Shown here: positions 20,901-47,584 of the stretch, piece by piece
Layout of the letters: each line of letters starts with the position of its first letter
How positions within the stretch are numbered: position 1 is the first letter of the stretch
Program-made: the position numbers and the translations under genes
The notes under the pieces: model-generated
Database searches by the model: none
What the model was told of the DNA's origin: nothing
The model's input: the letters and a program-made list of their open reading frames with translations, nothing else
IMG/VR virus record: IMGVR_UViG_3300033049_000013
Location: 1 to 64,000 of that record
DNA from: a virus
Reading direction: 5' to 3' (one strand)
Length of the DNA stretch: 64,000 bases

Positions 20901-23900
20901 TACAAGCTAAACTAGAGGACTTTGAAGACTTACATAAGCTATGGAGATTTACTACTGATGCTATGGATGATATTTTAGGTAGTAGTTCAGAAGATGGTGA
21001 GATACTAATTAAATCATTGGTAGATGTAGTTAAAGAAGCAGAACTATTATACTATCAAGAGAATACTCCAAAGCAATTAGCTAAGACTATTAAGACGTTA
21101 GATGATGTACGTCTGCATGTACAAAGCTATAAAGAATTATTGAATAGAGCTAAGACAATATTTGATAATGCAACTGGTGAAGAACTAGTAGCTATTAAAT
21201 CACATAAGGATTATAAGCGATTAGATAAGACAATTGCTGCTATTAATGATTTAGAGAATAACTATTTTGATTTAGCTAAAGAGTTGATGGCTGAGAGATT
21301 ATTTAAGTATGCTTCTAAGACTGGACAACAAAGTGTTGACTTACATTTTGCAGCTCAAGAAGATAGATTAAATACCGAAATAGAGAGTTTACAGATTGCT
21401 TTAGAGAATGCTAATTCACCAGAAGAAACTGCTAAGATTACAGCAACTATAGAGAAACGTAAAGCTAGACTAAAGGGTATTAATGTAAAGACTGAAGATT
21501 TAACTATTACTAAGGATTCTATATTAAATCATCTTAATCAACTGCCTTATGACATATCGTACATTCAACGTTATTTACTAGCACCTATTAGTTCTAGTGA
21601 CCATATACTAGCACTATATGCTAAGATGTTGAAGTTTAATATTATGGATGCAGAAATATCTCTACAAAAGAAAGGAGTAGATATGCAAACATTCATTGAT
21701 AACTTCTTAGAAAAATTAGGTAAGAAAAATATAGAGTACGATTCAGAGACATTCTTTGAACCTATATTGGAGACTAGAAATATCTGGGTAACTGTTACCA
21801 ATGAAAACGGAGAACGTGAGAAAGCATTAAGACCGGTAAGCGCTTTAGTAGATGAGTATGGAGTTAGAAAACATACATTAGCTAATGGAGAGTTAGTCGA
21901 ATTAGGATATAAAGAAATTATAAACGACTTTAGATTTAGATTAAATGAATTTAGACGTGATAGTAATTTCGATGAGTATAAGAAGCTTAAGAAGGACTTT
22001 GAATCTTGGATGCGTGATAATATGGAAGATGCCTATGTTAAGGAGTACTACGAATTAGAAAAAGTATGGACTGAGGATAGTATAGGTATTGAAGCTAAGT
22101 TACTTAGAGATGAATTTGATGACCAAATTAATGAAATTAGAAATGATTCAGGTAGTGAATTCGAATTAAATAAAGATGAGAAGCATGAGATTGCTAAACT
22201 TAGGTCTAAGAAAAGAGCTTTAGCTAGTATGTATACTGAATCTGGTAAATTAAAATCACTGGAAGAAATAGCTATTGCTAAGAAAATTCAAAAGTTCAGT
22301 GAACTAAATGTTAAGCTACATGACTTTGACTCTAATTATGACTTGTTTGAACATAAGAAAACCTTATTGATTAAGCATATCCAGGATAAGTATAGAAAGT
22401 TAGGTATAACAATCCCTGCTGAACAGACTCCTGAATACTTTGAATGGCTATCAGAAAATCAAGATACTTATTTAACTGACAAGTTCTATAATCGTTACAA
22501 TAAATTGAAGCTGGAAAGAGACTTACAATTTTATGCTGCGTACCATAAAAACTTAGAGCTGAAGAAGTTCTTAAATTCAAGAGAAGCTGAACGTTCAAAT
22601 GATGTTGACTTTGCCACAAAAGCACAAGAAATATTAAAAGGACAAGGACTTACAGTAGATGATTTACATAAAACAGATGCTCAAAGTATTGAAGTATCTG
22701 AGTTAAATGATAAGATTAATCAATTAATTAAGCCGTATAAGATAGGTAAGTATGTTGATTACTCATTAGTTCCTAAGAGTATATTTGTTAAGATAAAACA
22801 AATACAAAATAAGATACAAAACATTTATGCTGACTCAGACTTTAAATCTTTACCAAAGGAAGAAGCTGACAAGTTACTAAATGCACTAAGTATTAGGAAA
22901 ATATATCAATCTAATTTAGATGATTTCGGTAAGTATGAGCCAACTAACAAGTACTGGAAACACTACTATGAAAATAAAGCTATTGCTGAAGATAAAGGAT
23001 TAGATTTAGAAGATTCAACTTGGTTTAAACGTAATCATATATTTAATCCTAGAACAACACGTAATGAGCCTATTCGTATATGGCAAGAATTATTACATAC
23101 TAAAGCTAGTATATTAGGTACTGAGTCTAATAAGTATAGAGCACAAAAACAAGAAGTATTAAAGTCTTTGATGCTTGAATACCCTGACAGGACTAATTCT
23201 TGGTATAAAGAGAAGCTTAAAAAATCTAAATGGTATACTAAGCACCATGATGTAAGTGGTACTATTAAAAGGAGTTCTAGGTACTTACAAGAAGTAGACC
23301 CTGATAATGTATTTACTAAGGTTAGACCTTCTGCTGCTTATTCTACTTTCAAAGTTAAGGAAAAGTACATTAGAGATACTCAACTTAGTAGAGATGAAAA
23401 TGGCGACTTATTACCTAAGAAAAATAAATGGGTTAATAAGAAGTATAAAGATATTCAGAAAAGCAGTACATGGAAATATGCACATGATAACTTATTAGGA
23501 TTCTTTAAAGATGCACAATCAATTTTACCTCAAGAACATAGAATGGGTAATATACTTCCATTCACTAGAAAAGCTAGTAAAGAGATACTTGCAGGTAAAA
23601 AAGGTATTGTAGAGAAAGCTAAAGCTACTGGTAAATTAATAAAAGAGACCTTATTAATAAGTAATGCATTTGACTTAGAAGATGAAGGAGATAAAACTAT
23701 GTATAACTTATCGTTAGATCATAAGAAAATCCCTATGCCTTTTACTAAATCTAATTATGCAGTACAAGAAGAAGTATCTAAGGATGTTATTTCAGGAGTT
23801 ATGCAATACGTAAAAGCTGCCTATAAACATCAAGCTATAGACGATATGATGTCTGAGACTAGAATGCTAATGTCATTAGTAGACAAACGTGAAGGTCAAG

Positions 23901-25570: not shown

Positions 25571-28500
25571 TTATAATTTATAACATCCACGTGTCAAGTC
25601 AACTAAATCGGCTTGTGTACCACTTCTAAGTAATACAGTAGGAGCACCCAAACTAATATCACCTTTAATACTTGAGATAACCCTTTCAATAATAGGTTTA
25701 ATTTCAGTCTTATTAAGTGATTCTGAGTTACGTTCTAAGAAATCCTTATATTGGTCTACAGTAAAATTAGCAACTAAGAAGTAATCTTTCTTAAACTCTT
25801 TAAGAAACTTATTAACAACAGCATAATCTGCTTTATCATTAAACTTCTTCTTACCTAATACTCCACCATATTTCTTAAGCTCACCATATAAAGTCTTGGC
25901 ATTCTCAATTACAGGAGTTTGATATAACAACTGCATATCTTCTATAGTATCTACAGGTTCTACAGGTTTAATTTCATCTAGATTATTTTCAGTAAATTCT
26001 AGTTCTAATTGTTTCTCAACTTGTTCTTCTACTTCAGTCTTAGTTATCTTAACATCAGCTAATCGTAATCCTTTAATTCCTACGTCAGCTAATACTATAT
26101 CCAGCTTACCAAATATATTACGAACTATCTGTTTATGGTCTTTATTATCCCAATCAGGAGTTCTTAAAGCATCTACAATGTTACTAGGTATAATTTCTCC
26201 AGACCTAACAGCAGTTAATATTTCAACTCTAGTAGCTCTCCATACTCCCAATATACTAGCTAGTGTTGGAGCTGAACCATAGTCTAATATAGTTTTCTTA
26301 CTATTTATTACTGCAAGTACTTCAGCATCAGTATATTCTTTGTCTTTCTTTATAGCTTTCTTTTTAACTTTAGGCTTAGGCTTAACTTTAACTACCTCAT
26401 CGACTGGCTTATCATCCTTAATTTTAGGTTTCTTAATCTCAGGTTCAATTTCAATTTCAGTCTCAGTCTTCGCACTCTTAGCTTGCTCTATAATACTATC
26501 CTTAGTATTAGCTATATCGTCGTTTAAGCCCATAAAAATAGAGTTGTTCTCAAACATACTACTAGTTGTAGGGACTTCCATAAACGGTAAAATAGCTTTA
26601 ATACTAGTTACATTTTCAGGCTTAGGTAAACTAACTCCAATATTACCTTCAGTTAATCCATTCTTTAGTAATGAATTCTTTAATCTAGCACCTGAGTTAA
26701 AATCTAATCCTTTAATAATCTGTATAGCTTTACCAGTATTTTTATCTGCTACTTTCAATATAAGAGAATGAGCGTCTAATTTATTACTTCTAATAGAAGC
26801 AAAGTCTACTTCTAACTGAGTTACAGTAGGTCCAAACTTAGCAGGTACTTTAAAGAATAAACCATCTTTACTATCTAATAGAGTATTGATTTCTTTTCTT
26901 AATGCTCCGATTGATTCTGCATTACTTAAATCAATTTCCTGATTATTAAATACATCAATAATATTAGTAATTTTAGTAGCAAAACTATCTAATTCCTCTT
27001 TATTAGCATTACGTGGCTTTAAAGCAATAGGTCTCACTTTATTATTAAGGTCTTTAACTAACATCCAATAACGATTACGCTTACTACTCAATAAATCTGT
27101 AGTAACAACATCCTCTAAATAGCCTCCTATACTAGGGTCATTTATGTCATCTAAACTATGTCCTAATATAGACGTAGCAGATAGACTATTCTTCTCACTT
27201 GGCGAGTCTTCTAAGTCGTAGTTAAATTTATTATCAACAATAATAATCTTACCGTCAATTAAGAACTTCTCCATCTCAGGTCGTATCTCTTTACCATCAT
27301 AGAAGTATTCATCCATGTTGATTCGCTTATTATTATCGTACTCGAAGTCTATACTACCACCAGATACATTGAAGTTTACTAGTTGTTTTAACATCTCAGG
27401 TTCTAATATTGTCTCTGAGTAACCAACTTTGTTATAAATATCTAAGAACTCTTCAAATAACTTAGCTTGCTTGTTAGAACTATCACCAAATGCTTTTAAA
27501 TCTTCATAAGTTAATGTACCACCATTCTTATCTGAATACAATACATTGAATTCATCTAGTATCTCTTGTTGTTCATCAGATGTAGTAGCTAAATCGTATG
27601 CTTTTAACATAACTCCAGGATGATATACCTTATCAGTAGTCTTATCACCTTTAACTTTATGATAGATGTTAGGATTATTAGGATGCCCTGTGTAATACCA
27701 ATCAGGACTATCAGTAGTACCTAAATTAATCTCCATAGCTATATCTAAGTCCATCCAGTTATGAATACCAATGAAGTCCTCTCCTGATGCAACCTTAACA
27801 GGATTAGCATGAAGTAATCCTTGTTCTAATTTCTTAGATGGGTCATCATTCAATTCATTAGCTAATGCTTTATTAACGTTAACTGAGATGTCTTTCTTCA
27901 ATCTAAATCTAACATGGTCTTCTAATTTAAGTCCTTTGGCTTTCAAGTCCCATAAGAATTTAGTAAGTACTGCCTTAGTATTAATAGCTACTTTACTATC
28001 CAATTCTATATTATATAGTTCTTCAGCAAAGCCTTTAATCATATCTTCAACCTCTGCATCTGTATAAGTAGAGTTACCATTGATGTCATCTTTGGCAAGC
28101 TTATCTATCTTGTTCATTACTATTGCAGGAATCTGTCTATATTTCTTACCAAAGTAATTTTTAACTTCATTCTTAATCTTCTTATCATTAGCTTTAGTCT
28201 CCGAGTACATCAATTCACCATATGCATTACTTAGAATACCTGTTAAGTAATCTTTAGGTAACTTCTGAGTCTTATCATAACGATGAATATACATCTTAGT
28301 TATGTAATCGGGAGTATATAGATTCTCTCTAAATGCTCTATTAGTTGTATTCAAAGCTTGAAAGTCATATATATCATCCTTATTTACTTCAATACGATTC
28401 TTAGCCTCATTAGCAGTCTTAAATGGTATCAATACATAACTATCATCTTCCTCTGATATTACCTCATACAGTGTATCGTACTTAGCTTTACTAACTTTAG

Positions 28501-31500
28501 TTAATTCAACTCCATTCTTAAATTTAATTAGTTGTACTAACTTTCTCTTAATATTAAAGTCACCTTCAGTGTCAGAATCCTTAGCTCCTAATGATTCATT
28601 ATAGTCATTTATATTTGCATTGTAAGCATCAATAAATACCTTATCAAATGTATTCTGAATATTCTGAATCATTACATATTGACGATTATTTAAAGCTACT
28701 TCTTTAACTTCTTCAGCCGTCTTATTATTCTTAAAGAATAGTTCTGTTCTAGGTTTAGATCTAGTAATCTTAGAGAAATTAGTTAAGATAGCACTAACTG
28801 CTCCACTTATACTTTCAACTTCTTGTAATGATGTTACAGCTCCTAATTCTAAAGCATTATCTAATACTAAGTCATTTATAGAGTTCTCTAGAATAGCTAA
28901 TAAATTATTATATTGCTCTTCCGAAAACTTAGAAGCAAAGTTATCTATATTTAGTATATCTATTCCAGTAGCCACATCTTCTAAAAGTAATTTACTTACT
29001 TTATTATTTAATAATGTAATTAGTTTAGACTGCTCAATAGAATCAGTTACTAGTTCATTAATTTGGCGACCTAATGGAGCTAACTCACTGATTTGTAATG
29101 CCTCATCAATATCTTCAATAATTGTCTCAGTTAAAGGAACTTCATTCTCAGTATTTAATAATGCAATACGCTCATCTAATGTAGTAGCTAATTCTTGTAT
29201 TAACTCTGCATTAAGACCCGATGACATAATGTTTCTACGAATAATCTCATCTAAGAAAGTTGGACTAGTAGAAGTCTCTATAAGTCCAATGTACTCTTGA
29301 TTCAAATCTGAGTCTACATTAACTACTAAACCTTCACCTTTTAATCGAAGGAATTTCTCCACAGTCATGTGCTCTATGTTATCATTATTATATGTAGGAT
29401 TTAAAGGATGTTGTAATTCAATTAATCCATCTGGATTAACACCTAATAGCATTAAATCCAATCCTTCTATATTATATCGACCAGGTGTAACATCATTAAC
29501 TCCTGTTACTGTAGGTATAATATATGGTGCATGTTTATCTAGTATGTTTGTTAATTCATCTAACTTAGAGAATCCAGTAACACTAGATATAAATTCTACT
29601 ATCAATCCTTTTAATCTTTCCCATAAACTAATCTCACCTTTCTGTTCACTATCATCTCTACCTACTTTTGATTTAATAGTATGAAGGTATGAAGCAAACT
29701 CTTTTTGAGAGAAAGCTTGAGTTATTAATTCTTCTAATCCATTCCTATCACCTAATACTTCTGTTGCTTTCTTAATGTACTCTAATGCATCATATGCCCC
29801 TGCATACATACGTTCTTCTGTTACATTTTCAGTAGCTTGAGCATTGGCAATTTTACTATCTAAGTCTTTAAGTAAGTTACTTAATACTTCAGGTACAGTT
29901 TTACCATCATTTAAACTAAGTATGAAGCGCTTTAAATCAATTACAAACTGTGTAGACTCCTTAGTCTTATTTGGTATCTCATTACGCAATACTACATGAA
30001 TTGCTTCATGTACTAATAGTTCTTTAAAATAACTCAAACTATGAGGTCTTACAGTATCATTAAGTTGAAATACAATAGTATTACTATCTGGTGTAAAGTA
30101 AGCTGGTGTATTAGGGTCTAATTTAATGTTAGCAGGTATCTTATCTACTATTGAGATCTTAGTACCATATTTAATTAAACTGTCTAATAGAGGGCTATAT
30201 TCATCTACTATAGATAATAGAGAACCCCCATCTTCTGACTTGAATTCTATTAGCTTATCTTTAAATATCTGAGCATCTATAGCACCTGTTTCATCTAATA
30301 GAGATTTAATAACCTCCATAAATTCTACTACTCGTTTTCTTTCTTTGACATTCTTATCTCTAGATAATCTATTAACTACATTATCATCACCTTTTCCGTC
30401 TTTACCTTTATCTTTATCATCTTTATCATCTTTCTTCTCTACGTCTTCTGGCTTAACTTCTTCTTCATCAGACTTAGTTTTAGATAAAGCTGCTTCTGCT
30501 TCCTCAGCTATCTTACCCCAATACTTTGTAGAAGCTGCTATGAAGTTTTTTCTACCCTTAACTGAAGTCATTTCTTTAAATGCATCTTCTGCACTAGTAA
30601 CATCGGCTTGGGCAGTATACACTTGAGCATACTGGTCTTTCAGTTTATCTTGAGTATTAGTACGAATCATATTAATATTATCCGTTAATTGCTTCTTAGC
30701 TACGGCTAATGATTCCTTAGATGCATTCTCTAAGTCTTGTCCTGGTGTTAAGTATGAAGATAATGAATCCTTAATTAATTGACTTTTCTCAGCACCAATT
30801 TGTTTCTCTTGATTCTGATAATTAGATTTTAATCCTGCTAAACGTTCTTTAGTTTTAGCTAACAGTTTACTATCTATTTGAGCTGTAGTAAGTCCTATCT
30901 CTTTTGCTAATGTAGGATTAAGTACTCTAAGAGTCTCTAAGTATTGATGATACTCCTCACCTTCTAAGTCTTCTCCAACTTCTAGCATAGCAATAGATTG
31001 TCTTAAACCTTCTTGCTTTTGTGTCAGTTTAACTGATTGTTCTAATCCAGTTACATTTCCTTGCAACTTATTTACTTCATCATTGATTTCAGACTCATGT
31101 TCCTTTAAAGTCTCTAAATGTTTGTTTAGTTTCTTTCTAGAACTAAGTATATTACCTTTCATCAAGAAAGCAGATTTGGCATACTGATGTGACTCAGCAT
31201 CTCCATAATCAAAACGATTAGAAATATCTTTATAGATTTTATCCATCTCCTTGATGGTATCTATAGCTTCCTGAGCTTTAACAACATAACCATTGTCTGT
31301 AGCATCTTCTGCCAGACCCATTGACTGAGCTTTAGTTGTAGTAGTTTTAGCTAAACTTTGTAATTGTTTTACTTGTTCAGTTAATTTCTCAATTTTAGAT
31401 TCACTAGGATTTTCTGATGCTGCTTCTTCTTGAATTTGAGCTTGTATATTCTCTGCTTCTTTTAATGCTTGTTCAGATATACTAGTCTTATTATTTGTAT

Positions 31501-33271
31501 CTCTAATGTTTTCAAAAGTCGCTGTAAGATTCTTTGAAGTACCATTCTTAAATGCTTGATACATATTCAAATCAAACAATTCCATGCGTTTCTGGTCAGC
31601 TAGAGCTTTCACTCTTTCTGCTGGTAGACTAGCATCATTACGAACTATATTAGTAAGCTCATTCATCTTCTTATCAACAGTCAGTAAATCATCAGCTATC
31701 TGTAACTTAACCCTGTTAAATGCAACCTCTTTATCAATAGCTTCTTTCTTAGCTGAACTGATTCTACCTAATGGACCAGTTTCATCTACTGCTTTACCTT
31801 GAGCATCATATACATAATCTCCAGGTTGTACAATAATCTCCTCACCATTCGGTCCCATTTTCTTCTCTTGTGTATCTCCCCTATATCTAGCTTGTTCCTT
31901 ATACCTTGGAGCGTGTTCCATAACAGCAGTCTGTCCTACACCACCTAACATACCTGAGAAGAAACTAACAGCCCCTTCCTCAGACCATGCTGCACCTATA
32001 GTAGCACCTGCAGATTCTAAGTCAAGGAATTTACCAGCCATACCTCTAGCATCTCTTTTAGCGGCTTCTTCGTCAGTCATACGACCTATTCTATCACCTG
32101 ATGCTTCAGCCCATACGTTAACAAGTTCCTCTACCCCTTCTTGTACAGCTTCAGCAGCATAAGATAACTTATTACTTTGAGGTACATAAGCTAAGTTCTT
32201 AATACGTTCTGCAGCTTCGCCAATTCCCTCTCCTTTGAATTGTTTTAATTGATGCTTTATATTACCTAAGTCATCCAATAATTGTCTGTTAGAACGAAAC
32301 ATAGGAGCGACACTGGATAAATTAAGTACAGTATTTACAACTGTATTCAATCTAGTTGTTTGAGCAGCCGCCTCAGCAGCCCTTTTACGTGCATCTTCAT
32401 CCGACTTACCTCTACTTCTTTGTATCTGATATGTTCTATCAAATACTTGAGCACCTGACATAGCACCCTCAACATAAGCTAATGAACCTGATGTAGCTAT
32501 AGCAGCTCCAGCTCTTGCAGCATTTGCAGAAGTAGCAGTTAACGCATTAGCTAACTTAGCTCCTCTACCAAATATAGCACCAGGAATCACTGCAGTTGCA
32601 GCAAATTCACCAATAGATTCAAATAAACCTTGTCCTAATTGTAACCACCATGTTGGATCTGATATATCGGATGCAGCATTAGGACGTTCTCTATAAATTT
32701 CACCTGCGAAATCAGTCAATCCTTCCCTTGCACCTTCTGCAAATCTAGTTAATGAGTTCTCGTAATCACCATCATCATACAATAATGTACCTAAACGACC
32801 CATATTCTCAATTAATCCTAAACCAATACCACCAACAGTCTGTACAATAGCACTACCTGTTTGTTCCAATAATCCTTGATTCTGTGCTCTTAACTTTCTA
32901 TGGTCTATTCCTTTAGTCGGACCAGTTGCAGAACCTAGGTAAGGTTCAAATTTAGACCAATCATCAATATCAGTATGTCCATATAGTCCACTTCTAGCAT
33001 CTACATCTTTATCTACTTCATCACCTCTAGAAGTATCTAATCCCCTAGTTTTACCCCATTGGTCATAGTTACTTTGAAACAAAATATTATCTTCATTAGG
33101 TACAGCATCACTAAATCCTGATAATCCATATTCTAATAAAGCATCATTAGTTACAGGTTCATACCTAGTAATGTCTTGTGTAGTAGATATAGGAGCTGGG
33201 ACTGGTGTTGGAGCAGTATTAATTCCTCCTCCATTTTGATACTTCTTTCTATTATTGTTCTTATTACTCAT
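25571..33271 (-). CDS. giant virion cargo protein with zincin (MPTase) domain, 2566 aa
   Basis: LVHEAIHVV (29996-30010) plus EELITQAFS. Gly/Ala-rich, membrane-like N-terminal region (EAVQEGVEELVN, FFSGMLGG) typical of crAss ejected proteins; position follows the other cargo genes. Confidence 0.8.
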   Translation of the reverse strand: MSNKNNNRKKYQNGGGINTAPTPVPAPISTTQDITRYEPVTNDALLEYGLSGFSDAVPNEDNILFQSNYDQWGKTRGLDTSRGDEVDKDVDARSGLYGHTDIDDWSKFEPYLGSATGPTKGIDHRKLRAQNQGLLEQTGSAIVQTVGGIGLGLIENMGRLGTLLYDDGDYENSLTRFAEGAREGLTDFAGEIYRERPNAASDISDPTWWLQLGQGLFESIGEFAATAVIPGAIFGRGAKLANALTATSANAARAGAAIATSGSLAYVEGAMSGAQVFDRTYQIQRSRGKSDEDARKRAAEAAAQTTRLNTVVNTVLNLSSVAPMFRSNRQLLDDLGNIKHQLKQFKGEGIGEAAERIKNLAYVPQSNKLSYAAEAVQEGVEELVNVWAEASGDRIGRMTDEEAAKRDARGMAGKFLDLESAGATIGAAWSEEGAVSFFSGMLGGVGQTAVMEHAPRYKEQARYRGDTQEKKMGPNGEEIIVQPGDYVYDAQGKAVDETGPLGRISSAKKEAIDKEVAFNRVKLQIADDLLTVDKKMNELTNIVRNDASLPAERVKALADQKRMELFDLNMYQAFKNGTSKNLTATFENIRDTNNKTSISEQALKEAENIQAQIQEEAASENPSESKIEKLTEQVKQLQSLAKTTTTKAQSMGLAEDATDNGYVVKAQEAIDTIKEMDKIYKDISNRFDYGDAESHQYAKSAFLMKGNILSSRKKLNKHLETLKEHESEINDEVNKLQGNVTGLEQSVKLTQKQEGLRQSIAMLEVGEDLEGEEYHQYLETLRVLNPTLAKEIGLTTAQIDSKLLAKTKERLAGLKSNYQNQEKQIGAEKSQLIKDSLSSYLTPGQDLENASKESLAVAKKQLTDNINMIRTNTQDKLKDQYAQVYTAQADVTSAEDAFKEMTSVKGRKNFIAASTKYWGKIAEEAEAALSKTKSDEEEVKPEDVEKKDDKDDKDKGKDGKGDDNVVNRLSRDKNVKERKRVVEFMEVIKSLLDETGAIDAQIFKDKLIEFKSEDGGSLLSIVDEYSPLLDSLIKYGTKISIVDKIPANIKLDPNTPAYFTPDSNTIVFQLNDTVRPHSLSYFKELLVHEAIHVVLRNEIPNKTKESTQFVIDLKRFILSLNDGKTVPEVLSNLLKDLDSKIANAQATENVTEERMYAGAYDALEYIKKATEVLGDRNGLEELITQAFSQKEFASYLHTIKSKVGRDDSEQKGEISLWERLKGLIVEFISSVTGFSKLDELTNILDKHAPYIIPTVTGVNDVTPGRYNIEGLDLMLLGVNPDGLIELQHPLNPTYNNDNIEHMTVEKFLRLKGEGLVVNVDSDLNQEYIGLIETSTSPTFLDEIIRRNIMSSGLNAELIQELATTLDERIALLNTENEVPLTETIIEDIDEALQISELAPLGRQINELVTDSIEQSKLITLLNNKVSKLLLEDVATGIDILNIDNFASKFSEEQYNNLLAILENSINDLVLDNALELGAVTSLQEVESISGAVSAILTNFSKITRSKPRTELFFKNNKTAEEVKEVALNNRQYVMIQNIQNTFDKVFIDAYNANINDYNESLGAKDSDTEGDFNIKRKLVQLIKFKNGVELTKVSKAKYDTLYEVISEEDDSYVLIPFKTANEAKNRIEVNKDDIYDFQALNTTNRAFRENLYTPDYITKMYIHRYDKTQKLPKDYLTGILSNAYGELMYSETKANDKKIKNEVKNYFGKKYRQIPAIVMNKIDKLAKDDINGNSTYTDAEVEDMIKGFAEELYNIELDSKVAINTKAVLTKFLWDLKAKGLKLEDHVRFRLKKDISVNVNKALANELNDDPSKKLEQGLLHANPVKVASGEDFIGIHNWMDLDIAMEINLGTTDSPDWYYTGHPNNPNIYHKVKGDKTTDKVYHPGVMLKAYDLATTSDEQQEILDEFNVLYSDKNGGTLTYEDLKAFGDSSNKQAKLFEEFLDIYNKVGYSETILEPEMLKQLVNFNVSGGSIDFEYDNNKRINMDEYFYDGKEIRPEMEKFLIDGKIIIVDNKFNYDLEDSPSEKNSLSATSILGHSLDDINDPSIGGYLEDVVTTDLLSSKRNRYWMLVKDLNNKVRPIALKPRNANKEELDSFATKITNIIDVFNNQEIDLSNAESIGALRKEINTLLDSKDGLFFKVPAKFGPTVTQLEVDFASIRSNKLDAHSLILKVADKNTGKAIQIIKGLDFNSGARLKNSLLKNGLTEGNIGVSLPKPENVTSIKAILPFMEVPTTSSMFENNSIFMGLNDDIANTKDSIIEQAKSAKTETEIEIEPEIKKPKIKDDKPVDEVVKVKPKPKVKKKAIKKDKEYTDAEVLAVINSKKTILDYGSAPTLASILGVWRATRVEILTAVRSGEIIPSNIVDALRTPDWDNKDHKQIVRNIFGKLDIVLADVGIKGLRLADVKITKTEVEEQVEKQLELEFTENNLDEIKPVEPVDTIEDMQLLYQTPVIENAKTLYGELKKYGGVLGKKKFNDKADYAVVNKFLKEFKKDYFLVANFTVDQYKDFLERNSESLNKTEIKPIIERVISSIKGDISLGAPTVLLRSGTQADLVDLTRGCYKL

Positions 33272-39389: not shown

Positions 39390-39424
39390 TTTAAATTTTT
39401 TTTACAATAGTCAACTTAATACTA

Positions 39425-39452
39425 AGGCTTATAAGAGTAATCCTATAAGCCT
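39425..39452 (-). terminator. hairpin, possible terminator or processing site
   Basis: AGGCTTATA...TATAAGCCT inverted repeat in the intergenic region; no strong U tract. Confidence 0.5.
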
Positions 39453-39479
39453 ATAATATTATTATAAAGTATTGTTCTT

Positions 39480-41033
39480 TTAGTATAAATCAAAATCTCC
39501 TGTCATAGAATCATAGTTAGACACTCGTCCTTGTACAGTTCTACCTCCTTTCTCAAATTTTACAAATTGACCAGGATTAACACCTTGAATTACAATTTCG
39601 TCTTGATATTTAAAGTCAGGAAAACCTCTATCATTTCTACCACCATGCATGAATTGAGCCACCTCATCTTCAGGAGACATCATACTCATATCATCCATTG
39701 GTGCTTCGAGTTGTTCTTGTGGTTGACCTTGTTGTTGACCTTGTTGAGGTTCACTACCTAAATCTTGATTAGGGTCAGAATTTTGTTCAATTAATTGTCC
39801 TAAGACTTGACCTATCTTACCTGTATGTAAGTTATTTAATGGAGTATTTTTAATTTCCTCCATAGAAATACCTTGTTGAAGTAATTCTTTTTCAAATCCT
39901 TCAGAGAAAATATCAGTAGGATTACCTTGTAGCTGTTCAGGACTTAAAGGCTTTAATGCATTAGGTATCATTTCCATTACTTGTTGAGCAACTTGTGCTC
40001 CTATATTCATAGAATCATTACCTACAGAATCTACCTCTTGCATATCTTGAGGTGTTGTCTCAGGTAATTGCATTGCTTGCTCTTCTTGTAATGCTGGATT
40101 CATTTCTGCTTCCATCATACCACCTTCTTGATAAGAACGTCTTGAGTAAGGACTCATGTCTTCACCTATGTTATTCTCTACATTGTAAGTATGTCTATCC
40201 TTGGGAGATAATCTACTAGGGTCTTGATAAGAATTACCACCTAATTGCATAACAATATTATCTTGATATTTGAAATCAGGGAATCCACGGTCATTAATAC
40301 CACCTCCATATGCCCTATTTCGTCTAGGCATAAATCCACCATTACGTTGAATAGGTACACCATTTTGAGGTGGTGACGGTTGATTTAAATCTGGTTGAGC
40401 TGGCATCTCAGCAGGTTGTTGTGAAGCTGCTAATTGAGGTAATTCTAAATTAGCCACAGCTTGCTGGTCATTACCTGCTAAAGTTTCAGCTTCATTAGGA
40501 TTTTCTTGCATAATAAAATCCATTACAGAACCAAACTCTCTACCTTTTTTCTTTAATAGGTCGTGTAATCCCTTCATAAACCTACCTTCATTTTGTCTCT
40601 GTTCCATCATAGACAATTCTTCTTCTAACATTGCTTTAGCTTTAGGGTCGTTTAAATATCTATCTCTAGGATTGTTTTCGGCTTTACTGAAATATTTCAT
40701 ATAAGGTTTCATATCATCTGCCTGTGATTTACCATATTTCTTTCCCGCAGGAAATCCTTTTTCGGTAATCTTAGCAGAAGCTATATATACGGATTCATCA
40801 GTCTTCATAGGTATACCCTCAGTACCACCTGCGTTTTTTTGACCATGCCTAGCACCATTAGCTAGAAAGCCTTTAGAAGAGACTTTACTAGCACTAGCAC
40901 CACCAAACATAGACACATCGCTTGGGTTACCAACAACGACTTCACCACCTTCAATTTCAACATCTACAGCATCACCACCGTCTTCTTTAAAAGTAAGAGG
41001 ATAGGGACTATTACGTCCCCCCTCTTTTAATAC
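39480..41033 (-). CDS. cargo protein C-terminal segment (-1 frame; includes track ORF 39480..40916), probably expressed as a 932-aa fusion with the upstream ORF
   Basis: The frame is open from the slippery site (VLKEGGRNSPYPLTFKEDGGDAVDVEIEGGEVVVGNP...) with no ATG/GTG/TTG before GTG 40916. EIEGGEV...G..H...GG..GIP resembles a motif I recall from crAss cargo proteins. Confidence 0.75.
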   Translation of the reverse strand, partial: VLKEGGRNSPYPLTFKEDGGDAVDVEIEGGEVVVGNPSDVSMFGGASASKVSSKGFLANGARHGQKNAGGTEGIPMKTDESVYIASAKITEKGFPAGKKYGKSQADDMKPYMKYFSKAENNPRDRYLNDPKAKAMLEEELSMMEQRQNEGRFMKGLHDLLKKKGREFGSVMDFIMQENPNEAETLAGNDQQAVANLELPQLAASQQPAEMPAQPDLNQPSPPQNGVPIQRNGGFMPRRNRAYGGGINDRGFPDFKYQDNIVMQLGGNSYQDPSRLSPKDRHTYNVENNIGEDMSPYSRRSYQEGGMMEAEMNPALQEEQAMQLPETTPQDMQEVDSVGNDSMNIGAQVAQQVMEMIPNALKPLSPEQLQGNPTDIFSEGFEKELLQQGISMEEIKNTPLNNLHTGKIGQVLGQLIEQNSDPNQDLGSEPQQGQQQGQPQEQLEAPMDDMSMMSPEDEVAQFMHGGRNDRGFPDFKYQDEIVIQGVNPGQFVKFEKGGRTVQGRVSNYDSMTGDFDLY

Positions 41034-41039
41034 TTTTTT
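40995..41039 (-). promoter_or_regulatory. programmed -1 ribosomal frameshift signal
   Basis: Heptamer A-AAA-AAG (41039-41033) in the correct phase, a 6-nt spacer containing the 0-frame stop, then hairpin AAGAGG-G-GGGAC-GTAATA-GTCCC-TAT-CCTCTT (41026-40995). Confidence 0.8.
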
Positions 41040-42277
41040 CCGTATCGACCGCCCATTTCGTACATTCTATTTCTATTTGTAGCACGTCCTCCCATTCTAT
41101 AAGAAGGCATCATACCCATTCCATCATCCATCATTCCACTAGAATAAGGACGAGTCATTCCACCCATTTGCATTCTGTCGTAATCTCTACCATAAGGGTC
41201 ATTTCCTCTCATGTATTGATTAGTCATTCCGCCCATAGCGTATCTTGAACTCTGAGGCATATTGTTAAGGTCTCTACCTCTTTTATCAATACCTCTGTTA
41301 TTAAAACGATTAGGAGCATCCATTCGCATGTCCATCATACGTTGTCTTTGCTCTGGAGTCATAAGAGACTCTCTATACTCTTGCGGATTAGGCGATGCTT
41401 CGAATCCTCTAGTTAAATCACTATCGTCTTGCATCATCTGTGCTCTTTCAGCCTCAGCTTGCATCATTGCCATTTTCTCTGCTTTTTCTCTAGCCATACG
41501 TCTAGATACTCTACCCATGCCTGTTCCGCCACCATCTTGGTACATTGAACGACCACCATAATTTCTCATCATGCCTTTTAAATAAGTTTTATGTTCAGGA
41601 TTCCACCATGTCTGAGGATGTCCCATTCCATTTTGTTTCATACTGTTCATTTTAGTTAAATTTGAATCATAGTTATTACTATGTCTATAGTTATTTCCAT
41701 TAGTACGCATTCCATCTGCAGCTACTAACGGATTTAGGGAAGTACCTAAACTTCCAACATTCTCTGCTTTCTGACCTTCAGCTACTTGTTCTTGTTGTTG
41801 AGCAGCTTGTTGTCTATTAGCAATAATAGAACTAGCAGCACCTGCAACAGCACCAAGTGGTCCAGCAGTTGCAAAACCTTCCCCAGCACCACTTAAAGTA
41901 CTACCAAGCATATTTTGCCCACTACTAGCTCCTTTAGTATCATCTTGTATTGCAGAACCTACTATACCTGTAGCAAGTCCAGCAGCTTTTCCAGTAATCT
42001 GTCCAGCTCTTTTATAATTAAAAGGTTTACCCTCTGAATCTAATTCAATTTCAGGATCATTATTCATGTAGTCATCTCCTGGTTCACTAACTCCAGTTTC
42101 TCCACCAATCTGTCTTCGTTTTCTAGTAGTTTCCATTAATAGATTAATTTCACTAGGACGCATGTTACGAAAACCTTCATAAGATAAATTAGTAATTGCT
42201 CCTCGTTTTTTAAGCGAATCGTACAGTCCTCTTCTTCTATCAATTGTACCACCTTGTTGATACTTAAATCTTGTCAT
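41027..42277 (-). CDS. cargo protein 1-like (N-terminal part), Met/Gly-rich, 416 aa
   Basis: Directly after the muzzle gene; Gly/Ala-rich hydrophobic hairpin (GAGEGFATAGPLGAVAGAASS); about 8 x-x-x-GG tags. Confidence 0.75.
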   Translation of the reverse strand: MTRFKYQQGGTIDRRRGLYDSLKKRGAITNLSYEGFRNMRPSEINLLMETTRKRRQIGGETGVSEPGDDYMNNDPEIELDSEGKPFNYKRAGQITGKAAGLATGIVGSAIQDDTKGASSGQNMLGSTLSGAGEGFATAGPLGAVAGAASSIIANRQQAAQQQEQVAEGQKAENVGSLGTSLNPLVAADGMRTNGNNYRHSNNYDSNLTKMNSMKQNGMGHPQTWWNPEHKTYLKGMMRNYGGRSMYQDGGGTGMGRVSRRMAREKAEKMAMMQAEAERAQMMQDDSDLTRGFEASPNPQEYRESLMTPEQRQRMMDMRMDAPNRFNNRGIDKRGRDLNNMPQSSRYAMGGMTNQYMRGNDPYGRDYDRMQMGGMTRPYSSGMMDDGMGMMPSYRMGGRATNRNRMYEMGGRYGKKY

Positions 42278-42289
42278 GTTAAATGTATT

Positions 42290-45200
42290 TTATCTTATAG
42301 ATAAGTTAGTTAAGAACGTCATTATCTCTGTTTTGATTTTATAGTCTGCATCAGTATTATTAAAAAATAATCTAACTGCTACATATTTATCTCTAAATCT
42401 AGCCTGCTTATAAATAGACTTTGTACCATCCACACTTAGCGGATTTATAACTCTATCTAAGTAACCTTGTCCTTCTGTATTAAAGGAAGTTTGTAAATTA
42501 CTCCAGTTAGAAGTAAAGAAAGGAATACTACCATTTGTTACTTCATCCCTAAATCTATTAAATCTCCAGTAATTTTCTGTCCTATCTATTAAAGTTTGTG
42601 TTAGAGGTAACGTAATATTTTGATAACTGTTAGGTATTTTAACTATAAGGTTTCTTAAATTAGAACATTGTTTACCATTATACACGTAAAACCTATCAAA
42701 AGTAACATCTTCCACTCTATAAGAGTAGTCGGAGTCAGCCTCGTATATATAACTATCTGTTACAAATTGTGTACTATAATAAACCTTTTCTGTAGCAGGT
42801 GATTGGTCTAAACTAATATCTATAATGTGGTCATACTTTACACCATAGTAGGTTTGAAAGTTTCTTTCTATATGTTTCCAGACTACTGTATTATTATCAG
42901 TTCTATTTATAAAACTGTAGAAGTTAGTATTGTCATGGTACATATAATTTGGTTGATAGCTATGGAAGCTTACCCAAAAATTACCATCTAATGAATAACT
43001 CATAGTCCAACTTTTATTCTCAAACCATGCAGTGTCATTCATACCTATTTCTACAAATTCTGAACCATTCCAGTAATGCCATGCGATGTAATCAAATTCA
43101 TCGAATATTGCATATAGAGTATTAACTACTCCGCTTACTGGTAAAGTACCTAAATAGCCTCCAAATAATATAGTATTATTATCATCATCTGTTGCACGAA
43201 TTAAATAATCCTTTTTATGTAATACAATTCTATTCATTCTAGCATCATAAACAGCTTGGAATCCTACAGAGTTATCTGTGGAAGTACCACGTACTGTATA
43301 TTCAATACCAGCAGTTAGCATATAAAATTGATTAATAAATTCTAAAGATAAATTTGAGTGAAACCATTGTTCCATTCCTAGTTTAGATACTTCATTTAAT
43401 CCTTTACCAAATAAGAATATTCTACCACCAGCTTCATCTACATAGAATGTACCGTATTGCGTCCCTACGACAGTGTATTGACTACCTGAACCTCCATATC
43501 CATATTGTACAGAAACAAGTCTCTGCGGTGGAATAGAACCTATTTGTCCTGTTCCTATGAAAATAGTGGCTGCATTACTATCTAATTGTTGAGGTCTAGT
43601 CTGTACTGAAAATAATGCTTTCTCAGTATGTACATATAATTGATCTTTTTCTAAGAACATTGCAGTAATAGGACCAGATTCACTAGGAATAGGAAATTTA
43701 TTATTAGGCAATATTATTTTAAAATTATCAGCAATATCTTGAGCTTGTCCAGGAATTGAGTAGTAGATACTATTCGGTTCTCTTCCACTACAATCATCAC
43801 AGTAATTATAATTATCTGATACAGGGAAACTAGGAGTCTCATTATTTTGTTTACCAAAGTCTTTATTGTAATCATACTTAAATTCTCTGTAACCAAAGTT
43901 TGCTTCACTTACTTCTGTAGTATTAGTTAGCTCCACATCAGACCATAAAGTATCTTTATTGAAAGTTGAGCCACTTCTACCTACATTAAGATGGGTAAAC
44001 CTATCAAAATATTTAGGAGCATATTCAGATTCTGGTACTGCTGAATGTGCTAAAGAACTATTAATATTATCCGACTCTACAAAACCTTCCATAGATGATG
44101 CATTTGATTTCATATTATTAAGGTAATCACCATCACCTGAGATTTTAGACCATGTTTTAACATTTCTTACTTTAGTAATAAAAGTATCTCCACCTTTAAT
44201 AAGTTCATCATTAAATATAGCAGTACGAGGTATAAAACAAGTGTTCAATCGTAAGTATGTAATATTCTCTAAAAACCCAAACACATCTGTATTATTTTTT
44301 ATAGACACATAGAAGTTAGATACACTATGTCCTCTTAAGGCATCTTGTGCATCATCTACACTAGATTTTTTATATCCGTAAATAATATCACTTACTTGAC
44401 TTAATGCAGGATTCATTACCATAGGAAAAGGTAATTTAGTTTGATAGAAACTAGCTACTTGCCCAAATGAATCTGTAGTTAATTGTGTAGGGATTGAAAA
44501 CTGTGCAGCCCCACCAATTGAATGCCAGGGTACAATTGCTGCTCCCCTAATTTCTCTTTGAAATCCTAAGTATGCTAAATCTGTAGGTATTAATGTAGTG
44601 CTAGAACCTGGTGAATTTGAATAAAGATTCTGAGCTACAGCAACATGATTGAAATCACAATGCGTATAGCTGTCGTAATAATTAGTTCTACCTAATAGTA
44701 AATCACCTAATTCTAACTCTACTTGTTGCACAACAAATAATTCACGTTCTCCTGAATTTGCAGTTAAGTTAGATGGATGATAACTCATTACAGGACATTC
44801 TATTTTAATGAAATCTCCTGACGGTACACTTAAATCAAAGACGGTTGAAGGTGAAACGTACTCCACAAAATTACTTTCTGTCCCATGGAAGTGGTCATTG
44901 TCTGATGCAGAAAATCCTATGTCTGGTCTAAAATCTGGATTACTACTGTATCCATAACCATCATAAGTAGGTAATGAACTAGTAAAAGATATGTCTGCTC
45001 TAATGCCATCACTAATTGTATAAGAATCTTCACGTATCCTACCTACTGGAGGTACACCTGGAAGTCCTGGTAATAGAGCAAAATCATAAGTAAAGAATCC
45101 TGTAAGTAAATTAAATTTTATTTCTGGAAACCATATACGTGCATATCCACCTGCATTAGCTAAAGCAAAAGCCCTAGTATAAAATGTAGGTACATAGTTA

Positions 45201-47584
45201 TTTCTCCACATGTATCCTTTATCTATAATGGTCTTATTTTCAGGAGTTCGTTTACCATACACAATATAATGCCCACGTATGCTATTTCTTAATTTTGTAG
45301 GCATATTAGCATACACCTCAGTCATATCGACTATTAGACCTATCTTATTTAAAGCTATTCGCCTAAATACATTTGGATCTACAGTAGAAGGTATATTGTT
45401 AGTTGTTACCCAATCTCTTGTAGTTAATCCCATTTGATTTTCTTGATAGCCATAAACACCTGCATCTCCTCCACAATCAGGTATTCTATGATGTCTTATT
45501 GGTTGTCCTACTAAATTAGCTCCACCAATACTAGTAGCATCAAATACTGGTACTCCACTACAATCTTTATTAGTAGTGTATATATTATTAGAATGTTCAT
45601 AATATCCCATATAACCTTCTATAGTAGTATCCGTATTAGTACCCGTGGTTACAAAAGTATTATGTACTTTCCATCTAGGTATTGCTGTACAATCTAGAAA
45701 ATCAAAACTACTTTCATTTAGGAATAAACCAACATTTCCACCAGCAACATATACATCAACTCTACTACCTCCTGTTATTTCATGGTAAGAAACACCAACA
45801 GTATTACCTGATGTAGACACTCCATCTGAATCATAATAGAATATCTGTAAACACATAATGTTTTTAGAAACATCGTTATATGAAAAACCTAATGTATTAT
45901 CAGCAGTAGTTAAGAATTTGAAGGTTGTATCTACAAAATAAGAATCTCCTCCTCCTAGTATAGTAATACGAACGAGTGCTCTATCATTTGTGTCCAGAGC
46001 AAGTGTAAATTCACCTGTACTACCTGTAAGTAAACTAACTGTGAATGTAGTACTAAATTTAGCAGAAGTTTCATTTACTTCAGTACACGCTAATGTATCT
46101 AATAAATGAGTTACATTACTATAACCTACTCTAGTATCTTCATCTCCACTTTGTATTTCTGCATCAGGAGTAATTGTTAACGGTCGGTCATCCCATCTAT
46201 TTACTAATGGTAAGTTACCTCGTGAGATGTGTATATTCCTGCTATTCAAGTTAGCAATAGGAGTTAAGTCATTACCATCGAAGTCTTCATTTAAAGGTCT
46301 ACCAGGCGTATGTACTGCTGGCAATTCTGTACCATTATTAAGAACAAACACTGTACCTAGAGATATAATCTCATCTCTCATATGTGTTTTACCATCAAAA
46401 ATTATAACACTATTTCTATCTGCAAATTCTTGACCTACATTAGGAGATTTACTATTAACAACATAGTCTTTATACATTCTCCATTTAGTCTTAGCTCTCA
46501 AGTTAGTTCTTTGTAGTACTGCTAAGTCTTCATTTAAATTAGCTACATTTCCTAATAATAATCTATTATCAATAATTTCGTGTGCTCTTACACCAGTAAA
46601 TGGTATTATTGGCACAGTTACTTCAGATAAACTAGATATAGTATGACTAGTACTATCAAATCCTAAATAAGTATACTCGGCAGTACCAATGTTATTATCT
46701 ACAACAATAGGTATACTATCCAATATAAATACTTCGTCAATATTGCTTGTACCTTGTATAGCAGATAATACAGCTAGTTGTACAAATCTAAATGTAGGAT
46801 CTAAATCAGTTAAATTCAATTTAATACTTTTGTTAGTAATAGTATCTATTGATTCTCCATCCGCAATATTACTGTTTGTAGATTCTGTGTATACAAATAT
46901 AGGGTAACTAGCAGGAGACCAGTTAGTCCCATTACGTTGACTATCTAAGTACCTCATTACGAATTGATGGCTACCACTAGGTATAGAACCTCCAGCATCT
47001 CTTACTACTTCTAACTTTAAACATCCAGGATTAAAAGATAAGAAGTGATTAAATTTATCACAATTCCAAGCTGTTAAATAGTTAGTACCTAGATTGGCAG
47101 TATCTATTGTAAATAATGGATTTCCATTACTATCCAATGCTAAGTAACTATCTAAGTTATCTAAGTTAAGCGCTTTGTACGAAGTTATACCATCAGTGAA
47201 ATAAACTATTCGCTCACATCCTCCTACAATTCTAGCTCTAGTAGTTAATTGTCTATGGCTTTTAAATCCAATACAATTAGTTTTAACGGATACTGCAAAA
47301 TCACAATTCATAGGGTCATGAATACCTATAATAGAATCTGTATCATTTGTAAAAAATAGTACAAACTTATTATCAGGTAGTATTTGTGCTCCGATTAACG
47401 TATAGTTATCTTCACTGTAATTGATACATATTTCATTACCTACTTCATTAGTTATAGATGAAGCATCTCCATCCCAAGAACCAAATAAAGCATTTAATGC
47501 AAAATTCCATGTACCTTTAGGTTGTTGCTTAGGACTCGCTTGTGTGAACATTCCTTTTACTAAAGGAGTCGATTCTTTTTTCAT
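42290..47584 (-). CDS. tail muzzle / tail stabilisation protein (P22 gp10-like, crAss type), 1764 aa
   Basis: Beta-rich. N-terminal KGM...P...P.GT..FALNA; YFTDG; RLLLGN; GGDTFI; SWTMSYS...WVSFHSYQP; RFRDKY. Synteny after ring protein and IHF. Confidence 0.85.
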   Translation of the reverse strand: MKKESTPLVKGMFTQASPKQQPKGTWNFALNALFGSWDGDASSITNEVGNEICINYSEDNYTLIGAQILPDNKFVLFFTNDTDSIIGIHDPMNCDFAVSVKTNCIGFKSHRQLTTRARIVGGCERIVYFTDGITSYKALNLDNLDSYLALDSNGNPLFTIDTANLGTNYLTAWNCDKFNHFLSFNPGCLKLEVVRDAGGSIPSGSHQFVMRYLDSQRNGTNWSPASYPIFVYTESTNSNIADGESIDTITNKSIKLNLTDLDPTFRFVQLAVLSAIQGTSNIDEVFILDSIPIVVDNNIGTAEYTYLGFDSTSHTISSLSEVTVPIIPFTGVRAHEIIDNRLLLGNVANLNEDLAVLQRTNLRAKTKWRMYKDYVVNSKSPNVGQEFADRNSVIIFDGKTHMRDEIISLGTVFVLNNGTELPAVHTPGRPLNEDFDGNDLTPIANLNSRNIHISRGNLPLVNRWDDRPLTITPDAEIQSGDEDTRVGYSNVTHLLDTLACTEVNETSAKFSTTFTVSLLTGSTGEFTLALDTNDRALVRITILGGGDSYFVDTTFKFLTTADNTLGFSYNDVSKNIMCLQIFYYDSDGVSTSGNTVGVSYHEITGGSRVDVYVAGGNVGLFLNESSFDFLDCTAIPRWKVHNTFVTTGTNTDTTIEGYMGYYEHSNNIYTTNKDCSGVPVFDATSIGGANLVGQPIRHHRIPDCGGDAGVYGYQENQMGLTTRDWVTTNNIPSTVDPNVFRRIALNKIGLIVDMTEVYANMPTKLRNSIRGHYIVYGKRTPENKTIIDKGYMWRNNYVPTFYTRAFALANAGGYARIWFPEIKFNLLTGFFTYDFALLPGLPGVPPVGRIREDSYTISDGIRADISFTSSLPTYDGYGYSSNPDFRPDIGFSASDNDHFHGTESNFVEYVSPSTVFDLSVPSGDFIKIECPVMSYHPSNLTANSGERELFVVQQVELELGDLLLGRTNYYDSYTHCDFNHVAVAQNLYSNSPGSSTTLIPTDLAYLGFQREIRGAAIVPWHSIGGAAQFSIPTQLTTDSFGQVASFYQTKLPFPMVMNPALSQVSDIIYGYKKSSVDDAQDALRGHSVSNFYVSIKNNTDVFGFLENITYLRLNTCFIPRTAIFNDELIKGGDTFITKVRNVKTWSKISGDGDYLNNMKSNASSMEGFVESDNINSSLAHSAVPESEYAPKYFDRFTHLNVGRSGSTFNKDTLWSDVELTNTTEVSEANFGYREFKYDYNKDFGKQNNETPSFPVSDNYNYCDDCSGREPNSIYYSIPGQAQDIADNFKIILPNNKFPIPSESGPITAMFLEKDQLYVHTEKALFSVQTRPQQLDSNAATIFIGTGQIGSIPPQRLVSVQYGYGGSGSQYTVVGTQYGTFYVDEAGGRIFLFGKGLNEVSKLGMEQWFHSNLSLEFINQFYMLTAGIEYTVRGTSTDNSVGFQAVYDARMNRIVLHKKDYLIRATDDDNNTILFGGYLGTLPVSGVVNTLYAIFDEFDYIAWHYWNGSEFVEIGMNDTAWFENKSWTMSYSLDGNFWVSFHSYQPNYMYHDNTNFYSFINRTDNNTVVWKHIERNFQTYYGVKYDHIIDISLDQSPATEKVYYSTQFVTDSYIYEADSDYSYRVEDVTFDRFYVYNGKQCSNLRNLIVKIPNSYQNITLPLTQTLIDRTENYWRFNRFRDEVTNGSIPFFTSNWSNLQTSFNTEGQGYLDRVINPLSVDGTKSIYKQARFRDKYVAVRLFFNNTDADYKIKTEIMTFLTNLSIR

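Follow-up and report, generated by a model that had tools for sequence, protein, structure and literature searches.

A probable programmed -1 ribosomal frameshift joins the two reading frames of a C1-like cargo protein gene in a marine crAss-like phage

Background

The slippery heptamer A_AAA_AAG, followed after about 6 nt by a stem-loop of about 11-12 bp, is the textbook frameshift signal of the Escherichia coli dnaX gene, from which two isoforms, tau and gamma, are obtained. Insertion sequences of the IS3 family fuse two overlapping frames into orfAB at A_AAA_AAG or A_AAA_AAA, the heptamer being followed by a stem-loop or a pseudoknot. In the lambda gpG/gpGT and T7 10A/10B pairs the 0 frame gives an abundant short protein, while a -1 shift near its end adds a C-terminal extension at a fixed ratio. 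In this work, we are presenting a computational analysis of a reading-frame junction in an uncultured marine crAss-like phage, for which a metagenome is the only source (IMG/VR record IMGVR_UViG_3300033049_000013, 87,216 bp, 32.7% GC), where a gene resembling that of cargo protein C1 of phage PhicrAss001 is spread over two open reading frames (ORFs) and the second frame is probably reached by programmed -1 ribosomal frameshifting. All coordinates refer to the window, which is the whole 64,000-nt stretch of this record that was analysed; every gene of the tail/cargo block around the junction lies on the minus strand, and features are on this strand unless stated otherwise.

The junction shares with dnaX the identical heptamer, a stem-loop of similar length and spacing, and the prediction of two isoforms from one gene. 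However, in dnaX the shifted ribosome meets a stop codon at once, which gives the short product, whereas here the shift would give the long one; dnaX also has an upstream Shine-Dalgarno-like enhancer, for which we see only a weak match here. The two cases differ besides in gene, in organism and in host translation, presumed here to be of the Bacteroidota type. With the lambda and T7 pairs the locus has in common its place among virion-morphogenesis genes and the combination of a short 0-frame product with a long trans-frame fusion. Those genes code for a chaperone and a capsid protein and not for an ejected cargo protein, though, and here the cassette contains a strong hairpin and the long form corresponds to an ancestral full-length protein with single-ORF homologues rather than to an added extension. 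The likeness to IS3-family elements lies in the heptamer, the downstream structure and the two-frame fusion, and the differences in their transposase context and in the 13-codon frame overlap found here.

Cargo protein C1 of PhicrAss001, gp45, is a single virion protein of 90.8 kDa with a predicted transmembrane helix (residues 136-158), a helix bound to the tail barrel and a portal-bound domain inside the capsid (PMC10172136). The structural atlas in which it was described contains no mention of frameshifting (PMC10172136), and a full-text literature search found no programmed frameshifting reported for Crassvirales or for phage ejection proteins, in agreement with the preliminary description of this locus, which knew of no precedent in crAss-like phages. 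The junction would thus be a new case of a known type of recoding signal, in a gene context for which the search found no earlier report.

Results

Anatomy of the frame junction

ORF1 (41027-42277) is the 0 frame; it codes for the N-terminal part of a C1-like cargo protein and is the predicted short form (416 aa, 46.2 kDa, pI 9.7). Its last codons are GGA AAA AAG TAT TAA, with TAA at 41029-41027. The heptamer A_AAA_AAG (41033-41039) stands there in the X_XXY_YYZ phase of ORF1 and is followed by a 6-nt spacer, TAT TAA (41027-41032), which contains the 0-frame stop. The -1 frame is closed upstream by TAG (41067-41069) and is open after it for 528 codons, down to 39480. Since this TAG closes the -1 frame and TAA ends the 0 frame, the two frames can be joined only within 13 codons, and the heptamer is the sole slippery motif inside this overlap. 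The -1 frame has no ATG, GTG or TTG before GTG 40916, the next candidate being ATG 40910, and the first 39 codons after the junction are therefore startless. When called mechanically, ORF2 (39480-40916) begins at this GTG and comprises the C-terminal 478 codons of the long form; gene callers start it at ATG 40910, which gives the database protein P0002 of 476 aa. The conceptual fusion has 415 + 517 = 932 aa and 103.1 kDa.

The preliminary description had already pointed to this arrangement. We re-read the end of ORF1, the heptamer phase, the TAG closure and the start-free stretch to 40916, and all coordinates were correct; the counts of 39 startless codons and of 932 residues were reproduced, and the hairpin that it placed 6 nt after the heptamer, at 41026-40995, was recovered by folding. 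Upstream of the heptamer there is only GGGCGG, at -15 to -10, a weak match to GGAGG, which may or may not matter in the presumed Bacteroidota host. Rfam search of positions 40850-41150 gave no family at E <= 10.

The downstream hairpin

The candidate stimulatory hairpin (40995-41026) is G+C-rich; its 12 bp, interrupted by a 2-nt bulge, enclose a 6-nt loop. When a 40-nt window is folded the energy is -18.2 kcal/mol; for an 86-nt context it is -24.5 kcal/mol, and there none of 200 shuffled sequences was as stable (z = -3.5). In order to estimate how often such a combination occurs by chance, we surveyed 54 ORFs of the 87-kb genome that do not overlap one another and have 27,040 codons in total. 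They contain 86 in-phase X_XXY_YYZ heptamers, three of them A_AAA_AAG. The best hairpin after any of the other 85 reaches -8.7 kcal/mol, so that the one at the junction is more than twice as stable, and the pairing of a heptamer with a strong hairpin is unique within the 87-kb genome, which is beyond what is expected by chance. When all 40-nt windows of both strands were ranked, the hairpin came out as approximately the ninth strongest distinct locus. Its stem core pairs GGG, used for 4% of Gly codons, with CCC, used for 3% of Pro codons, and this pairing of rare codons suggests that the codon choice in the stem reflects selection at the RNA level.

An intrinsic terminator on the coding strand was considered and rejected, as the terminator scan made no call there and the tail has only four U residues. 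On the plus strand the same scan flags the inner stem of the palindrome (41004-41019), followed by CCCTCTTTTA; the plus strand of the cargo block is without any ORF of at least 150 aa, and shorter mechanical ORFs overlap the flagged palindrome.

The frame change falls within a homopolymer and one additional A yields exactly the fused frame, hence it could in principle arise during transcription, with RNA polymerase adding one A at the A6 run in some transcripts and so producing mRNA with a continuous ORF. The RNA polymerases used by crAss-like phages are unusual and may permit such slippage. Productive bacterial slippage sites, however, usually need about 8-9 or more A/T, while this run is only A6, and a transcriptional origin would leave the stable hairpin, built of rare codons and standing at the canonical 6-nt ribosomal spacing, without explanation. 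We regard transcriptional slippage as quite improbable.

The startless linker is conserved

The 39-codon linker of the -1 frame (40917-41033) has no canonical start and carries the motif VEIEGGE (40961-40941). It aligns to internal residues of the homologous proteins P0003, P0005 and P0004 and of the ORF on metagenome contig L002, with invariant columns; VEIEGGE and its neighbouring residues, which in this phage lie upstream of any ATG, GTG or TTG, are invariant among the homologues. In an AlphaFold2 model of the -1-frame product, built on an alignment of 43-46 rows, the predicted local distance difference test score (pLDDT) is about 88-98 over -1-frame residues 11-185 and 88-97 over the linker residues 11-40, with strands modelled at residues 14-16, 25-27 (V-E-I), 32-34 and 40-43. 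Alignment and model together indicate that the startless linker is coding and translated. The preliminary description had read two GG tags and the motif EIEGGEV in these codons, and VEIEGGE is invariant in the family and placed inside a fold of high pLDDT.

These data bear directly on gene fission with independent initiation, which is the main rival of a frameshift. According to it, ORF1 and ORF2 are translated independently and the hairpin serves as an inter-cistronic terminator or processing element; ORF2 would start at GTG 40916, at ATG 40910 or, ahead of VEIEGGE, at some non-canonical codon, and an ATG such as P0004 has would have been lost recently. The strong hairpins of this genome are indeed often intergenic. 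However, a start at 40916 or 40910 would behead a domain folded with pLDDT above 90, because three of its strands and the invariant VEIEGGE lie upstream of such a start, and no ATG, GTG or TTG stands between the upstream TAG and 40916. Nor do the missing terminator call on the coding strand and the short U tail agree with a terminator function. Non-canonical initiation of ORF2 was examined as a separate candidate and dropped: as near-cognate codons the -1 frame offers only one ATA, which precedes the heptamer, and one ATT, which lies within VEIEGGE.

Single-ORF homologues

In several homologues the two halves occur in one frame. P0003 (553 aa) matches the linker (…DVEIEGGE…) together with the start of ORF2 (E 1e-24), and its N-terminal part matches ORF1 residues 94-183 (E 3e-8). 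P0005 (1109 aa) unites in a single frame an N-terminal region resembling ORF1, the core with VEIEGGE and the C-terminal motif of ORF2, and on L002 the C-terminus of a muzzle gene is directly followed by one 598-aa ORF with all three parts. The N-terminus MTRFKYQQGG and residues 94-183 of ORF1 are colinear with the N-terminal parts of P0003, P0005 and the L002 ORF, and all three fused proteins carry a hydrophobic region of the ORF1 type and a C-terminus like that of ORF2. Because these single-ORF homologues are colinear, and in L002 likewise directly follow the muzzle gene, ORF1 and ORF2 are taken to be the two halves of one ancestral gene, which we regard as established. The fused L002, which served as a negative control, has neither an in-phase A_AAA_AAG nor a comparable hairpin upstream of the VEIE motif. 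Intron, intein and stop-codon reassignment were dropped as explanations of the junction: the stop is TAA, the frames are 1 base apart and there is no insert relative to the fused homologues.

A profile search of 1.84 billion representatives yielded 94 family members. Of 38 well-scoring representatives, 32 have 240-740 residues ahead of the conserved core; in this phage, P0004, P0013, P0029, P0042 and the fragment P0030 the core is within 16-71 residues of the N-terminus. Searches for the DNA of relatives yielded little. INPHARED phages gave no match to the locus with blastn or tblastn, scans of IMG/VR with ORF1, the extended ORF2, P0004, P0096, P0013 and the alignments A1, A4 and A5 gave no relative, and neither did scans of GTDB genomes; the JGI metagenome scan retrieved the fused L002 as the only relative. 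A word-based homology search with ORF1 matched only ORF1 itself, and its stand-alone homologue P0096 surfaced only in the profile search.

Persistence of the split

As homopolymers are indel hot spots and one extra A restores a single ORF, the junction might also be a plain lesion, due either to faulty sequencing or assembly or to a recent loss of 1 nt (A7 to A6) by which a C1 gene was broken. Breaks of the error type do occur in contigs of this family. We compared the locus with the independent Logan assembly of run X1, whose contig of 172,581 bp (word depth 22) shows no difference over 39400-42400 and reproduces A6; X1 and the IMG/VR record probably stem from one sample, and in this comparison, made between contigs, minority variants are not visible. 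Among the sequencing runs listed as containing the stretch there was none of RNA. A second assembler giving the same A6 speaks against an assembly error. In run X2, a subsurface metagenome from 2017 belonging to a different study, there is a 189-nt contig 100% identical to 41318-41506 and nothing else of the region; it could mean that this phage also lives in a second habitat, or that sequence was carried over from one data set to the other.

The distribution of the split was followed on a tree built on the core region, with members from IMG/VR, NCBI, ENA, JGI and Logan assemblies. This phage, P0004, P0013, P0029 and P0042, all without the N-terminal part, form one clade (Shimodaira-Hasegawa-like approximate likelihood-ratio test, SH-aLRT, 97). 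One state change accounts for the distribution of the split, and the longest distances between clade members amount to about 1.5-1.7 substitutions per site. Since the clade that shares the split is deep and its members were taken from five different sources, the split would be neither an assembly artefact nor a fresh lesion, and these data indicate that it is old and maintained. A random indel, moreover, would not bring a singular hairpin 6 nt downstream. Together with the ending of P0096 described below, this makes a plain lesion very improbable. The break in P0057 (JGI contig, 2,244 nt) makes a useful contrast: the frame is lost within the conserved core, after ...GGADASH, and the protein ends ...TSPWLKVHNMDR, as would be expected of a common frameshift of the error type in a contig from a metagenome.

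P0096, a stand-alone ORF1-like protein of 440 aa encoded on a 4.2-kb JGI contig, allows a comparison of the ORF1 end. Its N-terminal half is 31% identical to that of ORF1 (E 5e-19), the middle region of about 190 residues is no more alike than shuffled sequence, and the last 30 residues score 44 against 23.5 +/- 4.8 for shuffled ones, none of 500 being as high. P0096 ends ...YYGKKC* and ORF1 ends ...RYGKKY*, an ending of the G-K-K-x type which was present in only 2 of 103 stored proteins. This diverged protein thus terminates at the same place as ORF1, after the Gly-Lys-Lys that in ORF1 is encoded by the heptamer, which is hard to reconcile with a plain lesion. If the difference between Tyr and Cys came about by UAU to UGU, it would leave the -1-frame protein unchanged (GUA to GUG, both Val).

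For gene fission the clade offers evidence on both sides. A clade-wide split is also what stable fission would produce, and P0004 and P0013 begin with M-[E/A]-DGG just before VEIE, so that in some members of the clade the downstream half may be initiated on its own. The two do not group as sisters, though, and for this reason an ATG before VEIE is not a shared feature of the clade; P0029 and P0042, like the protein analysed here, are called only downstream of VEIEGGE. VEIEGGE has remained intact after long divergence within the clade, hence it is under selection and must be translated. Finally, fission would reduce to coincidences the in-phase A_AAA_AAG one codon before the stop (3 per 27,040 codons), the hairpin and the ...YGKK-x-stop ending of P0096. 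We therefore consider fission unlikely.

Identity of the split gene

ORF1 begins 12 nt past the end of the gene for the crAss muzzle protein (1764 aa, 42290-47584; PF25731 crAss_MUZ, E 3.9e-37; phrog_15100 virion structural protein, E 1.7e-99), and this upstream neighbour fixes the position of ORF1 and ORF2 in the synteny. The muzzle protein of PhicrAss001 we take to be gp44, the order gp44/gp45 being read from the gp numbering. Both here and in L002 the gene in question lies directly downstream of the muzzle gene.

The predicted C1-type portal-binding domain (40554-40895) covers -1-frame residues 47-160, that is residues 462-575 of the long form, and has 7qog_M as its best PDB match. In a structural comparison with 48,161 PDB chains, 7qog_M was the only one with Z >= 5 (Z 5.4, root-mean-square deviation 2.9 A, 95 of 126 residues aligned, 20% identity); re-examined from the Foldseek list it gave Z 6.0 with the same deviation and aligned length, the identity being 17-20% across both comparisons. 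The match spans the whole resolved portal-bound domain, gp45 residues 425-552. Other searches were less informative. Foldseek against PDB had no match at E <= 1e-3 (7qog_M, E = 2.6), a profile search of PDB sequences had none at E <= 1 and none to gp45, and Pfam and PHROGs offered no family for ORF2 and only a marginal PHROG match for ORF1. The comparison with Crassvirales cargo proteins, proposed in the preliminary description for the fusion, gave a structural match of the -1-frame domain to gp45; at the sequence level the searches established no link to it.

A Gly/Ala-rich hydrophobic segment of ORF1 (41819-41875, residues 135-153), with the top Kyte-Doolittle 19-mer mean (1.44), is a candidate membrane-insertion helix. 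As this segment and the domain at 462-575 parallel gp45 residues 136-158 and 425-552, the fusion would recreate the C1 architecture. The two genes are alike in following the muzzle gene, in product size of approximately 90-100 kDa, in a hydrophobic segment at about 135-155 and in a portal-bound domain at about 425-575, but gp45 is described as a single protein while here the gene is spread over two frames. The label "cargo", used for both ORFs in the preliminary description, is supported by the synteny and by the 7qog_M match, and taken together the two ORFs are best explained as the orthologue of cargo protein C1 of Crassvirales. ORF1 alone would be only its N-terminal, tail- or membrane-directed part.

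Terminal motifs and neighbouring genes

The long form is closed by a conserved C-terminal beta-hairpin motif (…KFEKGGRTVQGRVSNYDSMTGDFDLY; 39483-39584), defined from alignments, modelled with pLDDT 84-94 and present in most family members. It has about 30 aa with the pattern (Y/F)(V/I)KF-x-x-GG(R/K)-x-x-x-G-x-(V/I)-x-x-(Y/F)(D/N)-x-x-TG-x-F-x-L. On L002 it occurs at 3570-3657 and 5360-5442 of the plus strand, and it closes also the next, otherwise unrelated gene of 593 aa. The hairpin is modelled with confidence and has a weak SH3-like match, 8jvz_A (Z 2.6). The motif could be a common packaging or portal-docking signal of cargo proteins.

At the opposite end, a tag of the type [K/R]-[Y/F]-[Q/K]-x-GG lies within the first 15 or so residues of ORF1 (42277-42240), of a 956-aa ORF (39389-39340) and of a 2566-aa ORF (33271-33220), all on the minus strand. 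Most homologues of the C1 family have this N-terminal tag too, e.g. MNNLYQEGG, MEKLYTIGG or M..KFKYQSGG, and x-x-GG motifs are repeated throughout ORF1 and ORF2. The N-terminal tag could act as a targeting or cleavage signal.

Further along the window there are three giant ORFs, of 4688 aa (3713-17779, plus strand), 2541 aa (17909-25534, plus) and 2566 aa (25571-33271, minus), presumably virion RNA-polymerase-type cargo proteins; the two on the plus strand converge on the cargo block. The X1 contig, with its 172,581 bp, is to be compared with 87,216 bp of the IMG/VR record, which CheckV rates as 62% complete, and the full genome may have about double the length of the record, which would make it a large one among crAss-like phages.

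Discussion

From the sequence and the modelled fold we infer that slippage takes place on the ribosome, and we consider a programmed -1 ribosomal frameshift to be the probable nature of the junction. This interpretation, put forward in the preliminary description, has gained support from the colinear single-ORF homologues, the coding linker, the canonical heptamer with its hairpin, the clade-wide split and the tail of P0096. In the proposed mechanism an ancestral single ORF would have become a two-frame gene in this phage lineage. Most ribosomes translating ORF1 would stop at TAA 41029-41027 and release a basic protein of 416 aa and 46 kDa with the N-terminal tag and the hydrophobic segment. 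The others, a fraction of the total, would pause at the 12-bp hairpin 6 nt downstream, the Lys-tRNAs on AAA-AAG would slip one base back at A_AAA_AAG, and translation would continue for 517 codons in the -1 frame. The shifted product would be the full-length C1 of 932 aa and 103 kDa, with the portal-binding domain and the C-terminal beta-hairpin. Both isoforms may be in use: the short form may be additional tail or membrane cargo, and the long one may span tail, portal and capsid.

Several observations weigh against a programmed frameshift or against the identification of its product. Conservation of the heptamer and stem in relatives rests on one protein tail, that of P0096. In P0004 and P0013, which among the ORF2-like relatives are the closest, the called start is an ATG that precedes VEIE by nine residues. 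The hairpin sits just past a stop codon, and in this genome hairpins at such places often belong to terminators or processing sites; several other top-ranked hairpins, of those checked, fall between ORFs and are terminator-like. The Z-score of 7qog_M is middling (5.4-6.0). High shiftiness of A_AAA_AAG in E. coli depends on a single tRNA-Lys(UUU), so that slipperiness of AAG in this phage depends on the tRNA-Lys set of the host; the 87-kb record encodes no tRNA.

A broader proposal can be made only tentatively, and we hold it possible rather than probable. The whole marine clade of crAss-like phages may have recoded a single-ORF C1 through a conserved, dnaX-like -1 frameshift that meters two isoforms, namely a basic N-terminal form with the membrane-insertion segment, a form that could load the tail barrel or make up the channel, and a full-length form which would thread tail, portal and capsid.

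Annotation pipelines call two hypothetical proteins at this locus and cut off the invariant start of the portal-binding domain; once the frameshift is recognised, the full-length C1 orthologue is restored. The frameshift predicts moreover a second, shorter isoform of the protein thought to be the first to leave a crassvirus during infection. As gp45 is seen not only in the tail barrel but also in the capsid, short and long forms made in metered amounts would provide a handle on the partition of cargo between these two places. The locus would also be a case of a single ORF turned into a frameshift-dependent gene and kept through deep divergence, which is useful both to recoding surveys and to those who call genes in Crassvirales. 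If the proposal for the whole clade is true, this would be the first programmed recoding described in Crassvirales and, to our knowledge, also the first in a phage ejection or cargo protein, and it would link recoding to the stoichiometry of the ejectosome.

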